From Escherichia phage 348Ecol098PP, in sequence record OR062947.1: a stretch of 64,000 nt of DNA; one strand, written 5' to 3'. Shown here in pieces: positions 34,085 to 38,664 of the stretch (within the stretch, counting starts at the first letter, position 1; every line of letters begins with the position of its first letter). Under the pieces are notes generated by a model. The model saw nothing but the letters and a program-made list of their open reading frames with translations, was not told where the DNA came from and did not search any database. The position numbers and the translations under genes were made by a program.

Positions 34085-36340
34085 ATGCAAGTAACTAAGA
34101 GCAGTGGTGTATCCCAAAATTTTGATGCACAGAAAATTATTCAAGTCTTAACTTGGCAATGTGAAGGAACACAAATTGACCCATATGAATTGTACGAAGA
34201 AATTAAGACCCATCTTGTTGACGGGATGAGCACCAAAGATATCCAGAAGATTTGTATTAAAGTTGCAGCTAACTCGATTTCTGTCGAAGAACCTGATTAT
34301 CAGTATGTCGCCGCCAAAGGGCTAATGTTTGCACTTCGTAAAGATGTATATGGGCAGTTTGAACCGCCTGCTTTTATCGACCATATTTCTTATTGTGTTA
34401 ATGAAGGCAAATATGACCCTGAGCTGTTGTCTCAATATTCAGCAGAAGAAATCATTTATCTCGATTCACAGATTAAACATGAGCGAGATTTTGACCTGAC
34501 TTATGCTGGTGCTATGCAGCTTAAAGAAAAATACCTGGTTAAAGATAAAACAACTGGGAAGATTTATGAAACTCCCCAGTTTGCTATCATGGCCATTGGC
34601 ATGGCCTTACACCAAGACGAAACTCATGACCGTTTGAAACATATTATTCGTTTTTATGATGCCGTTTCTACTCATCAAGTTTCATTGCCTACCCCAATTA
34701 TGGCAGGTGCTCGTACTCCAACTCGCCAGTTCTCTAGTTGTGTAGTTATTGAAGCAGGTGATTCGTTAAAATCTATTAACAAAACTTCAGCATCAATTAT
34801 TGAATATATTTCTAAACGAGCTGGTATCGGTATCAACGTTGGTATGCTTCGTGCAGAAGGTTCTAAGATCGGTATGGGTGAAGTTCGACATACAGGTGTT
34901 ATTCCATTCTGGAAACATTTCCAAACTGCAGTAAAATCTTGTTCTCAAGGTGGTATTCGTGGTGGTGCTGCTACAGCGTATTATCCGATGTGGCACTTAG
35001 AAGTAGAGAACCTATTAGTTCTGAAAAATAACAAAGGCGTGGATGAAAACCGTATTCGTCATATGGACTACGGAATTCAGATTAATGACCTTATGATGGA
35101 ACGCCTTGGTAAAAATGATTATATTACTTTATTTAGCCCTCACGAAATGTCAGGCGAACTATACTACTCGTTCTTTGAAGATCAAGATAAATTCCGTGAG
35201 CTTTATGAGAAAGCTGAAAAAGACCCGTCAATCAGAAAGAAAAGAATCAAAGCACTAGAACTCTTTGAATTGTTCATGACTGAACGTTCTGGCACTGCTC
35301 GAATTTATCCACAGTTTGTTGATAACACGAATAACTACACTCCATTTATTCGTGAAAAAGCTCCAATTCGTCAGAGTAACTTATGTTGTGAAATCGCTAT
35401 TCCAACTAATGATGTGAATGGTCCTGATGCTGAAATTGGTTTATGCACATTATCTGCTTTTGTATTAGATAAATTTGATTGGCAAGACCAAGATAAAATT
35501 AATGAACTTGCTGAAGTACAAGTACGTGCACTTGATAACCTGTTAGACTATCAAGATTATCCGGTTCCAGAAGCTTTAAAAGCTAAAAAGCGTCGAAACC
35601 TCGGTGTTGGTGTTACGAACTATGCCGCATGGTTAGCTTCCAACTTTGCTTCATATGAAGACGCTAACGATTTGACTCATGAATTGTTTGAGAGATTGCA
35701 ATATGGCCTTATCAAAGCATCAATCAAACTCGCCAAAGAAAAAGGATGTTGCGAGTATTATTCAGACACTAAATGGTCTAGAGGCGAATTACCTATCGAC
35801 TGGTACAATAAAAAGATTGACCAAATCGCAGCCCCGAACTACGTCTGTGACTGGGAAGAACTTCGAGCTGAACTCAAAGAACATGGAATTCGTAACTCAA
35901 CGTTGTCTGCACTCATGCCTTGTGAGTCAAGCAGTCAAGTATCGAACTCTACAAATGGGATTGAGCCACCACGCGGTCCAGTAAGTATTAAAGAATCTAA
36001 AGAAGGCAACTTCCGACAGGTTGTTCCTAATATCGAACATAACATGAGTCTTTACGACTATGCGTGGAAACTTGCTAAGAAAGGTAATAAACCTTATTTG
36101 ACCCAAGTTGCTATCATGTTGAAATGGGTGTGCCAATCTGCTTCTGCTAATACTTACTATGACCCTGCAGTATTTGAGAAAGGTAAAGTGCCAATGTCAG
36201 TAATGCTTGACGATCTGCTTTACTTCTGGTACTTTGGCGGAAAAAACCTCTACTATCATAACACTCGTGATGGGTCTGGTACAGACGACTATGAATTAGA
36301 AACACCTAAAGCAGAAGATTGTTCTGCTTGTAAGCTTTAA
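34085..36340 (+). CDS. nrdA: ribonucleoside-diphosphate reductase alpha subunit
   Basis: 751-aa ORF with class I RNR motifs (ATP-cone N-terminus, catalytic NLCCEI, C-terminal CSACKL). Confidence 0.9.
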   Translation: MQVTKSSGVSQNFDAQKIIQVLTWQCEGTQIDPYELYEEIKTHLVDGMSTKDIQKICIKVAANSISVEEPDYQYVAAKGLMFALRKDVYGQFEPPAFIDHISYCVNEGKYDPELLSQYSAEEIIYLDSQIKHERDFDLTYAGAMQLKEKYLVKDKTTGKIYETPQFAIMAIGMALHQDETHDRLKHIIRFYDAVSTHQVSLPTPIMAGARTPTRQFSSCVVIEAGDSLKSINKTSASIIEYISKRAGIGINVGMLRAEGSKIGMGEVRHTGVIPFWKHFQTAVKSCSQGGIRGGAATAYYPMWHLEVENLLVLKNNKGVDENRIRHMDYGIQINDLMMERLGKNDYITLFSPHEMSGELYYSFFEDQDKFRELYEKAEKDPSIRKKRIKALELFELFMTERSGTARIYPQFVDNTNNYTPFIREKAPIRQSNLCCEIAIPTNDVNGPDAEIGLCTLSAFVLDKFDWQDQDKINELAEVQVRALDNLLDYQDYPVPEALKAKKRRNLGVGVTNYAAWLASNFASYEDANDLTHELFERLQYGLIKASIKLAKEKGCCEYYSDTKWSRGELPIDWYNKKIDQIAAPNYVCDWEELRAELKEHGIRNSTLSALMPCESSSQVSNSTNGIEPPRGPVSIKESKEGNFRQVVPNIEHNMSLYDYAWKLAKKGNKPYLTQVAIMLKWVCQSASANTYYDPAVFEKGKVPMSVMLDDLLYFWYFGGKNLYYHNTRDGSGTDDYELETPKAEDCSACKL

Positions 36341-36394
36341 GACTTTTTATTATAATTTACTCATGGATGAGTTAATAACTAAGTGAGAAATATA

Positions 36395-37070
36395 ATGAGT
36401 ACAGTTTTTAACACACAACAAGTCGATGTTTTGAATGAACCGATGTTCTTTGGTTCTGGTCTTGGCCTTGCACGTTACGATATTCAACGACATAAAGTTT
36501 TTGAAGAGCTTATCGAAAAGCAGCTCTCGTTCTTTTGGCGTCCCGAGGAAGTAAACTTGATGTTGGATTCGGCCCAGTTTAATAAGCTTCCACAGTTCCA
36601 ACAGGACATCTTTACCAACAACCTTAAGTATCAATCATTATTAGATTCTATCCAAGGTAGAGCACCATCTGCGGTACTTATGTCATTGCTTTCAGACCCT
36701 TCATTAGATACATGGGTTGCTACATGGACTTTCAGTGAAACTATTCACTCTCGTTCATATACTCATATTATGCGAAATCTTTATACAGATCCATCGAAGG
36801 TGTTTGATGAGATTGTATTAGATGAAGCTATTATGAAGCGTGCCGAATCTATCGGACGATATTATGATGATGTTCTGGTTAAAGCTCGTTATTGGGAAAA
36901 CGCTAAAGCTGATATCGAATACCAAAAAGAAATTAATGCAGACGAAGACGTTATTGAAGATGCTATTGAGCATGAGACATATTGGAAGCGTGAGCTAATG
37001 AAATCTCTTTACCTTTGCCTCCATGTAATCAACGCATTGGAAGCTATTCGTTTTTATGTATCTTTTGCGT
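36395..37070 (+). CDS. nrdB: ribonucleotide reductase beta subunit, exon 1
   Basis: ATG at 36395; matches recalled T4 NrdB through ...LEAIRFYVSFA; the last exon nucleotide T37070 starts the split Cys codon. Confidence 0.8.
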
Positions 37071-38161
37071 AAAATGCGCCTTTAAACGGTAACGTTTATC
37101 GAAAACTCCTTTAATTGCTGGAAAGTCCTTTATAGGAAAACTAGCAGCCAAGGTTTTGCTTGCACCTTTAATTAGTATAATATAAATATGATTATACTTT
37201 TAAGAGGATGCACAATTGAACTATAGAAAAATTTGGATAGATGCTAACGGACCTATACCTAAAGATTCTGATGGAAGAACATACGAAATCCATCATAAAG
37301 ACGGTAACCGTGAAAATAATGATTTAGATAATTTGATGTGCCTTTCTATACAGGAACATTATGATATACATTTAGCTCAAAAAGATTACCAGGCTTGTCA
37401 TGCTATAAAGCTTAGAATGAAATATTCTCCTGAAGAAATTTCTGAATTAGCTTCTAAAGCCGCAAAATCTAGAGAAATCCAGATTTTTAATATCCCTGAA
37501 GTACGAGCTAAAAATATTGCCTCTATTAAATCTAAGATAGAAAATGGTACATTTCATCTTTTAGGTGGTGAAATACAACGTAAATCTAATTTAAATAGAG
37601 TTGCATTAGGTATACATAATTTTCAACAAGCTGAGCATGTTGCAAAAGTCAAAGAACGTAATATTGCAGCTATAAAAGAAGGTACTCATGTATTTTGCGG
37701 TGGTAAAATGCAGTCAGAAACTCAATCAAAACGGGTAAATGACGGTTCACATCATTTCTTATCAGAAGACCATAAGAAAAGAACATCAGCAAAAACATTA
37801 GAAATGGTTAAGAACGGGACCCATCCTGCACAAAAAGAAATCACATGTGATTTCTGCGGTCACATTGGTAAAGGTCCTGGATTTTATCTAAAACATAATG
37901 ACAGATGTAAATTAAATCCAAATAGAATTCAATTGAATTGTCCATATTGTGATAAGAAAGATTTATCACCATCAACATATAAACGATGGCACGGCGACAA
38001 TTGCAAAGCAAGGTTCAACGACTAGTCTTCGGACGTAGGGTCAAGCGACTCGAAATGGGGAGAATCCCTCTGGGATTGTGATATAGTCTGGTCTGCATAG
38101 TAATATGTAGCAGTTCATAAGAGAACGGGTTGAGAATTAGCGAGCTCAATCGAACATAACG
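37071..38161 (+). mobile_element. group I intron in nrdB (about 1091 nt) carrying an HNH endonuclease ORF
   Basis: Interrupts NrdB between ...YVSFA and C-TFNFHKNMEIMEG; ends in G before exon 2 gtaccttt; boundaries inferred from the protein junction, so plus or minus a few nt. Confidence 0.75.
37216..38025 (+). CDS. I-TevIII: intron-encoded HNH homing endonuclease (full-length I-TevIII-like)
   Basis: 269-aa ORF with HNH motif EIHHKDGNRENNDLDNL and C-terminal Cys clusters; apparent TTG start at 37216 after aagagg RBS. Confidence 0.7.
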   Translation: MNYRKIWIDANGPIPKDSDGRTYEIHHKDGNRENNDLDNLMCLSIQEHYDIHLAQKDYQACHAIKLRMKYSPEEISELASKAAKSREIQIFNIPEVRAKNIASIKSKIENGTFHLLGGEIQRKSNLNRVALGIHNFQQAEHVAKVKERNIAAIKEGTHVFCGGKMQSETQSKRVNDGSHHFLSEDHKKRTSAKTLEMVKNGTHPAQKEITCDFCGHIGKGPGFYLKHNDRCKLNPNRIQLNCPYCDKKDLSPSTYKRWHGDNCKARFND

Positions 38162-38664
38162 GTACCTTTAACTTCCATAAGAACATGGAAATCATGGAAG
38201 GTAATGCCAAGATTATGAAGTTCATTGCTCGTGATGAACAGCTCCACCTCAAGGGCACTCAATATATTATTCGTGCTTTACAAGATGGCGAAGACGGTGA
38301 TGAATGGGTCAAAATTGCTCAAGAGTGTGAACAAGAAGCAGTTGATATTTTCATGGAAGTTAACGCTCAAGAAAAAGAATGGGCTGAACACTTGTTTAAA
38401 GATGGTGCTCTTCCAGGTCTAAATGTTAAAATCCTAAGTGAATTTGTGGATTATCTTACCGTGTCTCGTATGCGTAGTTGTGGTCTGCCATGTCCTCTTA
38501 AAGACGTATCAACTCGTCATCCTATTCCATGGATTCGTGAGTATTTGAACTCTGATTTGGTTCAAGCAGCTCCTCAGGAAGTTGAAATCAGTTCTTATCT
38601 TGTCGCACAAATTGATAATGATGTAGACCAAAATGTAATCAATTCATACAAAAAATATTTCTAA
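38162..38664 (+). CDS. nrdB: ribonucleotide reductase beta subunit, exon 2
   Basis: In-frame continuation (C)TFNFHKNMEIMEGNAKIMKFIARDEQLHLKGTQYIIR; combined protein about 392 aa. Confidence 0.8.

Follow-up and report, generated by a model that had tools for sequence, protein, structure and literature searches.

An RB3-type nrdB group I intron with an intact I-TevIII reading frame and a predicted UUG start codon in Escherichia phage 348Ecol098PP

The nrdB intron of phage RB3 and the endonuclease encoded in it, I-TevIII, go back to Eddy & Gold 1991, as cited in PMC2988022, and the enzyme itself was characterised by Robbins et al. 2007 (PMC1865063). In the RB3 enzyme, alanine mutants of H26, H27, N39 and H48 lose cleavage activity, the pairs C211/C214 and C242/C245 are required for zinc and DNA binding according to mutagenesis and zinc stoichiometry, and cleavage takes place at -14/-16 (PMC1865063). 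Phage T4 (NC_000866) has the same intron at the same insertion site, with the same core and the same regulatory region including the TTG start, but its copy is 598 nt long, a 491-nt deletion (window positions 37276-37766) having removed the HNH motif and shifted the frame, and its record annotates a 97-codon remnant read from an ATG in another frame. The td intron of T4, encoding I-TevI, resembles these introns in having a late promoter inside a hairpin that hides the Shine-Dalgarno sequence (SD), a homing-site-like sequence at that promoter and an ORF tail that runs into P6/P7 (PMC2988022). I-TevI is, however, a GIY-YIG monomer with an AUG start, whereas I-TevIII is an HNH dimer with a UUG start, and operator binding and hairpin control have been demonstrated for I-TevI only, not for I-TevIII. 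More distant are the free-standing "I-TevIII-like" HNH genes of Gelderlandvirus STP4-a and Winklervirus X20, which share a homologous HNH N-terminal domain (29-49% identity) with one C-terminal zinc finger but differ in being 201 aa long, starting with ATG and lying outside introns, between the head genes gp68 and gp21.

Here, we analysed a 64,000-nt stretch of Escherichia phage 348Ecol098PP (OR062947.1), referred to as the window; all features described below are on its plus strand. We conclude that the element interrupting nrdB in this phage is almost certainly a mobile group I intron, namely the RB3-type nrdB intron of the T4 family, carrying an intact I-TevIII HNH homing endonuclease, and none of the evidence gathered here contradicts this identification. 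A first-pass annotation made from the letters had read the locus in the same way; its interpretation is supported by our results apart from the suggested effect of the UUG on expression, and direct reading of the sequence recovered every feature that it had claimed where it had placed them.

The interrupted nrdB gene and the intron fold

In OR062947.1, nrdB spans 36395..38664 and is split after T37070. An NrdB-like ORF opens at ATG 36395 and runs into a stop at 37070-37072, right past ...RFYVSFA, and the NrdB frame picks up at 38162 (GT ACC TTT AAC..., i.e., (C)TFNFHKNMEIMEG) and ends at 38664. Exon 1 thus occupies 36395..37070, its last base, T, being the first of a split Cys codon as judged from the ORF and the in-frame splice product, and exon 2 occupies 38162..38664, beginning with the GT that finishes the Cys codon and containing the stop codon. 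When 36395..37070 and 38162..38664 are joined, they form 1179 nt in frame that encode 392 aa with no internal stop, colinear with nrdB of APCEc01 and other relatives in which the gene lacks the intron. With the Cys codon divided T/GT, U is the last base of the 5' exon, and the 1091 nt between the exons end in G, in keeping with the group I rule. The first-pass annotation had described a break of about 1091 nt between an Ala and a Cys residue; the size and the location of the break hold, but it falls within the Cys codon rather than between the two. The RB3 and APCEc01 records likewise have an annotated nrdB.

The intron (37071..38161, 1091 nt) was delimited using half matches to RF00028, ORF-less derivatives, lengths and covariation. 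Its length and insertion site equal those of RB3, AV111 and Ozark. A whole-window Rfam search at the gathering threshold returned no single match for the intron, because the ORF-bearing loop of ~860 nt splits the RF00028 model. Searched alone, the 3' half scored 33.9 bits (E 1.4e-6) and the 5' half 19.2 bits against RF00028, for which the gathering score is 50 bits, and two natural ORF-less derivatives exceeded that score (PD112, 68.6 bits; DCP80, 74.1 bits). The core of PD112 is identical to that of the window intron, and that of DCP80 is ~8% divergent. Overall, the core outside the ORF loop (246 nt compared) is identical in the window, RB3, U5, Ozark and PD112.

Helices P2 to P9.2 were laid out from Rfam alignments and inspection. 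P1 (37067..37079), assigned by reading the sequence alone, would pair exon GCGU at 37067-70 with intron GCGC at 37076-79, U37070 and G37076 forming a wobble pair at the 5' splice site; DCP80 could form this pairing as well. It is followed by the P2 hairpin (37084..37097; 37084-88 with 37093-97), which closes a GUAA loop and has compensatory double changes in 3/5 pairs. The 5' core (37106..37149), placed from the Rfam alignment and fully paired (100%) in the covariation count, comprises the 5' strand of P3 (37106-09), P4 (37116-21 with 37141-46), P5 (37126-29 with 37134-37, one compensatory pair) and the 5' strand of P6 (37147-49). Beyond the ORF loop, the P6 3' strand (38012-14), J6/7 and the P7 5' strand (38020-24) fall in 38012..38024, where AAGGUUCAACGACUA was aligned to the Rfam consensus. 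Next come P7.1 (38025-27 with 38032-34, UUCG loop) and P7.2 (38038-42 with 38047-51, with a compensatory pair), together 38025..38051; these are extra helices typical of subgroup IA2, the class of the T4 introns. The 3' core (38059..38110) holds the P3 3' strand (38059-62), P8 (38064-68 with 38072-76), J8/7 and the P7 3' strand (38084-88), together with P9 (38093-99 with 38104-10, GUAA loop), all placed from the Rfam alignment and covariation. At the 3' end (38113..38161) lie P9.1 (38113-16 with 38123-26), P9.2 (38128-34 with 38145-51, two compensatory pairs) and the terminal G38161.

We counted pairs over nine distinct core variants. Across 58 pairs, 98.3% of the cells were paired, the unpaired cells being all in P7.1 and resulting from a one-column index offset, so that P7.1 was read by eye. 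Double compensatory changes occurred in eight pairs (three in P2, two in P9.2 and one each in P5, P7.2 and P9), while 0/500 shuffles were as good and no slid register gave any double change. Helices P3, P4, P6 and P7 do not vary among the core variants and are therefore uninformative alone. The locus shows a U at the 5' exon end paired to G in P1, a terminal G and a reading frame restored on excision, as group I introns do, and the identical core of RB3 and T4 is reported to splice. Judging from this fold, the pre-mRNA would form a P1-P9.2 ribozyme in which guanosine would attack after U37070, the terminal G38161 would set the 3' splice site, and exon ligation would yield the 392-aa NrdB.

The I-TevIII reading frame

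The P6 loop contains the I-TevIII ORF (37216..38025; 269 codons, TTG start, TAG stop), recognised by ORF reading, Pfam and alignment. Pfam detected HNH_3 in it with an E of 6e-13; the catalytic HNH motif with H26, H27, N39 and H48 aligns at 37291..37359; and a regular expression located two CX2CX12-13HX3C zinc fingers (37846..38004; residues 211-231 and 242-263) in the DNA-binding and dimerisation region. An intact HNH frame with C-terminal Cys clusters, as described in the first-pass annotation, is hence present. The window protein keeps 8/8 of the mutationally defined residues (H26, H27, N39, H48, C211, C214, C242 and C245). Aligned with RB3 over 269/269 residues, it is 98.5-98.9% identical and differs by the substitutions D23Y, D117G and I142V, with no frameshift relative to the functional enzyme, the defect that the annotation had named as one that would overturn its reading. 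D23Y sits three residues from H26. A tyrosine at position 23 is also found in S16, STP4-a and X20 and matches the family consensus, which makes D23 of RB3 the outlier. Compared with the S16 copy (88.8% amino acid identity), dN/dS is 0.12, which shows the full-length ORF to be under purifying selection. By these sequence comparisons, a 269-codon ORF that is 98.5% identical to an enzyme already characterised and has a dN/dS of 0.12 is far beyond what chance would be expected to give.

At the nucleotide level, the window intron resembles that of RB3 (KM606994) in gene, site and 1091-nt length, and the core and the region of promoter, hairpin, SD and TTG are identical; only 8 nt differ, all within the ORF. 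AV111 (Mosigvirus, OR352941) shares the backbone of the window phage, encodes exactly the same I-TevIII protein and differs by 2 nt in the intron, and the intron of Ozark (Tequatrovirus, MT682713) differs by 7 nt. None of these four copies of 1091 nt (the window, RB3, AV111 and Ozark) bears an ORF lesion. Other relatives do: beside the 491-nt deletion of T4, deletions of 504 nt in AV109 (intron 592 nt), 664 nt in SG1 (420 nt) and 785 nt in both PD112 (304 nt) and DCP80 (309 nt), the last two removing the whole ORF, were observed, as well as a 2-nt frameshift in U5 (1083 nt) and a 1-nt insertion directly after the TTG in EI (1090 nt). The T4-type deletion is absent from the window, where 37276-37766 is present in an intron of the full 1091 nt. 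The statement in the first-pass annotation that T4 retains a truncated I-TevIII and RB3 the full-length 269-aa form holds both in the alignments and in the annotations of the deposited records, the window having the intact form.

Searching with tblastn, we found 128 phage records that match I-TevIII, among which 87 span 80% or more of the protein, almost all with 97-99% identity. The element described here adds one more copy to a system that has been characterised in depth and as such is already known. Its discovery value is small, given that the element, the enzyme, the cleavage chemistry, the regulation model and the defective T4 derivative are all textbook matters and that these 87 records hold a full-length copy. 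A PDB sequence search detected no solved structure of an I-TevIII relative. Pfam also reported a match to FlgM at residues 74-117 (26.5 bits against a cut-off of 25), which we judged spurious, as it falls in the protease-sensitive helical linker and nothing in its surroundings supports it.

Start codon and predicted expression control

The Shine-Dalgarno sequence AAGAGG (37202..37207) was read 8 nt before the TTG at 37216. The I-TevIII frame is shut by TAA at 37201-37203, five codons upstream, and is open only from 37204; the TTG at 37216 is the sole ATG, GTG or TTG ahead of codon 41, which is the next in-frame ATG. Initiation at Met41 would lose H26, H27 and N39, i.e., three of the four catalytic residues. 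Additionally, the deposited RB3 CDS for I-TevIII uses this TTG, with identical surrounding sequence, as its start, and the residue numbering of PMC1865063 (H26, H27, N39, H48, C211 and so on) fits only a count from this codon. With the frame closed upstream and the same TTG used in the RB3 CDS, the claim that TTG 37216 is the first in-frame start after AAGAGG is borne out. The nearby ATG at 37208 is out of frame, as had also been claimed, and meets a stop after three codons (ATG CAC AAT TGA, 37208..37219); it abuts the SD with a 0-nt spacer, and its TGA overlaps the TTG (TTGA). Relative to the aligned N[YH]RKIW block, the ATG of the free-standing homologues lies only four residues further upstream, which indicates that the N-terminal boundary is right. 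Translation would thus probably begin at UUG 37216, the only viable start. This start codon is the accepted annotation, already present in the RB3 record, and not a new observation. Among the papers searched, which included PMC1865063 and PMC2988022, none mentions a UUG/TTG start of I-TevIII, and the locus serves as a reminder that this start has apparently never been the subject of an experiment.

RB3, AV111, Ozark and T4 all have the TTG in the same unchanged context, the codon is conserved in every intact copy read, and it is kept in the divergent S16 copy, where codon 2 differs synonymously. We consider this conservation to be weak evidence for possible selection on a weak start, because the bases adjoin a hairpin and lie in a 7-nt repeat, and nearly all copies are >98% identical there. 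When IMG/VR and JGI metagenomes were scanned for versions of the start context with ATG or GTG, a single contig with the T4-type deletion was all that came up, so that there was no natural start-codon variation to exploit.

The start lies at the edge of a predicted hairpin (37152..37222; -21.5 kcal/mol, z -2.7) in which AGAGG (37203-07) would pair with CCUUU (37165-69) and UGCA with UGCA, the G of UUG also being paired. A T4 late-promoter motif, TATAAATA, was read within the hairpin at 37181..37188. A transcript from ~37194, the start inferred at 6-7 nt past TATAAATA, lacks the 5' arm of the hairpin and folds at only -4.3 kcal/mol. Just upstream of the promoter, 37154..37175 is an operator-like copy of the homing site, identical at 17/22 positions to -8..+13 of the intron-less junction, a match that 1/300 shuffles equalled. 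Late promoters upstream of the intron ORFs, a hairpin model for I-TevI/II/III and a putative I-TevIII operator have all been proposed previously (PMC2988022), and 37154-37175 appears to correspond to that putative operator. At the other end of the ORF, the last five codons and the TAG overlap the P6 3' strand, J6/7 and the P7 5' strand; the I-TevI ORF tail likewise overlaps the td core, where premature translation impairs splicing (PMC2988022).

Taken with the published model for T4 intron ORFs, these elements suggest that in early and middle nrdB transcripts the hairpin would bury the SD and part of the start codon, and that late in infection the TATAAATA promoter inside the hairpin would give a transcript devoid of the 5' arm, with the SD freed. 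The weak UUG, the hairpin and the homing-site-like operator would probably hold ribosomes and endonuclease levels low, and translation reaching the ORF tail would be expected to compete with ribozyme folding. It is plausible that the UUG start keeps endonuclease expression low, as had been suggested for this locus, which by analogy would fit the multilayer repression of T4 intron endonucleases. A further step, that the UUG, perhaps acting with the mini-ORF, is a selected third translational restraint in addition to the SD hairpin and the putative operator and protects nrdB splicing, is a tentative proposal that we regard as less probable than its opposite. Such a restraint would keep ribosomes out of P6/J6-7/P7, where the last five codons and the stop lie. 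If it exists, a UUG-to-AUG change should raise I-TevIII and lower nrdB splicing, like deletion of the hairpin for I-TevI/td.

Ribosomes might also reach the frame without initiating directly at UUG 37216, either by translating the mini-ORF from AUG 37208 and re-initiating at the overlapping UUG (UUGA), or by starting at a near-cognate AUU (37231) or AUA (37237). The overlap of the mini-ORF stop with the UUG is the geometry of coupled translation elsewhere, and the mini-ORF is conserved in all copies read, but this conservation cannot discriminate between the readings, the whole region being nearly invariant. AUG 37208 has a 0-nt spacer to the SD as against 8 nt for the UUG, and a 0-nt spacer is unfavourable for initiation in E. 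coli. A near-cognate start finds some precedent in phage EI, whose copy carries the 1-nt insertion behind the TTG and has ATT as its annotated start codon; that insertion may, however, be a sequencing error or a real defect, and initiation at AUU or AUA would cut into the conserved RKIW block, to which the N-termini of STP4-a and X20 align. We therefore think it improbable that either route replaces direct initiation, and retain the UUG at 37216 as the start of I-TevIII.

Mosaic nrdB exons and the origin of the intron

The 10 kb flanking the intron is Mosigvirus-like, matching AV110 and others at 97-98%, and no mobE lies between nrdA and nrdB in the window, unlike in T4 and in RB3, the latter being a Tequatrovirus with mobE where the window phage is a Mosigvirus without it. 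We compared the nrdB exons with Ozark, an intron-bearing Tequatrovirus, as donor reference and APCEc01, an intron-less Mosigvirus, as backbone reference, which gave 260 distinguishing sites. The window is APCEc01-type at 242/260 of these, Ozark-type at 17/260 and neither at 1/260. Of the Ozark-type sites, 14 follow one another between -55 and +23 (window 37016..38184) and make up the only run; the remaining three are scattered over nrdB nt 75-93. The backbone-type sites nearest to the run are at -75 and +98 (38259). Outside the converted tract, the exons of Ozark are ~20-25% divergent.

The run defines an upstream co-converted exon tract (37016..37070; donor-type polymorphisms at -55..-1), which includes the equivalent of the I-TevIII cut at -14/-16 (~37054-37056), and a downstream one (38162..38184; +1..+23). 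All homing-site polymorphisms between APCEc01 and the window (-4, -1, +2, +17 and +23) are inside the converted tract. At the MobE nick region (nrdB nt 114-131), the sequence is of the backbone type. The mosaic pattern indicates that a Mosigvirus backbone gained the intron with 78-171 nt of flanking exon from an Ozark-like Tequatrovirus donor, and the tract is the footprint that would be expected of I-TevIII-initiated homing, in which repair from an intron-bearing allele would copy in the intron together with flanking exon. Co-conversion of flanking exon has been reviewed (PMC2988022). The locus would accordingly represent a natural case of cross-genus homing, from Tequatrovirus to Mosigvirus, with a short and sharply bounded co-conversion tract. 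Transfer of such introns across phages is reportedly known from the work of Sandegren & Sjoberg 2004.

Within the upstream tract, 37016-37040 (25 nt with 10 synonymous differences) was considered as a unique patch that might confer nuclease resistance. This candidate was rejected, as the patch matches at 100% in Ozark, G2285, WilhelmHis and AV119/120, all of them intron-bearing, does not include the -14/-16 cut site and is a long way from the MobE nick. Because it is common to intron-bearing phages and off the cut and nick sites, we read it as co-converted donor sequence. In this patch (-55..-31), the window is identical to Ozark and differs from RB3 and from AV111, the latter carrying the common, non-Ozark-type sequence.

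T-even phages recombine very frequently, and small synonymous patches occur elsewhere in this nrdB, so that the Tequatrovirus-type block could have entered by ordinary homologous recombination between co-infecting phages, with no initiation by an endonuclease. We judge this to be unlikely, considering that the donor tract, with its short 78-171 nt of exon, encloses the intron exactly and holds the I-TevIII cleavage position, and that the differences of APCEc01 at -4, -1, +2, +17 and +23 are the expected signature of co-conversion (PMC2988022). Homing initiated by I-TevIII remains our preferred account of the block.

That the intron splices while its ORF is a decaying relic, with an endonuclease dead as in T4, and that the intron persists only by descent or by hitch-hiking on MobE-type homing in trans, is very improbable: decay is frequent in the family (491-, 504-, 664- and 785-nt deletions and 1-2-nt frameshifts in relatives) and one of the three substitutions relative to the tested RB3 enzyme is beside the HNH histidines, but the ORF has its full length, none of the eight residues defined by mutation is missing and dN/dS against S16 is 0.12, Y23 is the state in S16, STP4-a and X20 with RB3 D23 as the exception, mobE is missing between nrdA and nrdB, and it is around the I-TevIII cut and the insertion site that conversion is centred, the MobE nick region being backbone-type.

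For an RB3-type intron with an intact I-TevIII, the correct annotation of this locus is a single spliced nrdB plus I-TevIII with a TTG start. We noticed that many deposited records instead show two "NrdB fragments" and a "hypothetical protein".

Excision of the ORF from the nrdB intron

The ORF of I-TevIII (37216-38025), the HNH homing endonuclease encoded within the nrdB group I intron, is flanked by a 7-nt direct repeat, ACAATTG, at 37212-37218 and 37997-38003, the first copy of which contains the TTG start codon. In the introns of phages PD112 and DCP80, the ORF has been removed by an exact 785-nt deletion running from one ACAATTG copy to the other, leaving a residual ORF of 10 codons (MHNCK[A/T]RFND). 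The late promoter (37181-37188), the SD-burying hairpin (37152-37222) and the SD sequence (37202-37207) are still there in both ORF-less introns, now without use. Given the exact repeat-to-repeat deletions, and an intron core identity of ~100% for PD112 and only ~92% for DCP80, either the 785-nt deletion arose repeatedly via microhomology, or the ORF-less form spread and diverged.

Compared with intron-bearing relatives, the segment holding the late promoter and the hairpin loop (37176-37190) is an indel hot spot. Insertions of 3-5 nt occur there in S16, AV109 and DCP80, and TATAAATA is lost through a deletion of 6 nt in U5, SG1 and an IMG/VR contig. The I-TevIII ORF is defective in all three carriers of this promoter deletion, and promoter loss seems to go along with endonuclease loss.

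Synonymous patches in nrdB and the nrdA-nrdB spacer

We noticed that nrdB exon 1 carries, at 37016-37040 (positions -55 to -31 from the intron insertion site), 10 synonymous third-position differences within 25 nt, as referenced to RB3, T4, AV111, APCEc01 and MM02. These five phages mutually agree over the interval although they are 20-25% divergent elsewhere, a uniformity that crosses genera. The variant patch is 100% common to Ozark, G2285, WilhelmHis and AV119/120, every one of which is intron-bearing; we take it to be donor sequence.

Against the three closest Mosigvirus relatives, two smaller synonymous patches were found, one at 36469-36490 (nrdB nt 75-96; 5 differences in 22 nt) and one in exon 2 at 38571-38577 (3 differences in 7 nt). 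MobE, a free-standing endonuclease, nicks nrdB in a region that has been mapped, and the former patch is ~30 nt upstream of it. The nrdA-nrdB gap spans only 54 nt (36341-36394), with a sigma-70-like TTGTAA-17-TATAAT at 36328-36356. The window has no free-standing endonuclease at this site, whereas it is filled by mobE in T4, RB3 and S16, and by hef in U5 and SG1.

The middle region of I-TevIII and its annotation

Residues ~111-205 of I-TevIII (37546-37830) consist of five tandem repeats of ~22 residues each, occupying the whole stretch from the HNH domain to the zinc fingers. A G-[T/S/I]-H motif is present in each (NGTFHLL, LGIHNFQ, EGTHVFC, DGSHHFL and NGTHPAQ), and Pfam gave no match over the repeat region. 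These repeats may be repeated DNA-binding modules. A borderline and probably spurious Pfam match to the FlgM anti-sigma-28 factor at residues 74-117 (37435-37566; 26.5 bits vs a cut-off of 25, E = 7.6e-6) maps to the protease-sensitive linker.

Many records annotate nrdB as two 'NrdB' CDSs and I-TevIII as hypothetical, and that of S16 has a nested second ORF within I-TevIII. In Klebsiella phage EI (1640-1665), an additional A directly follows the TTG on its 3' side, and the annotation has I-TevIII start at an ATT codon.
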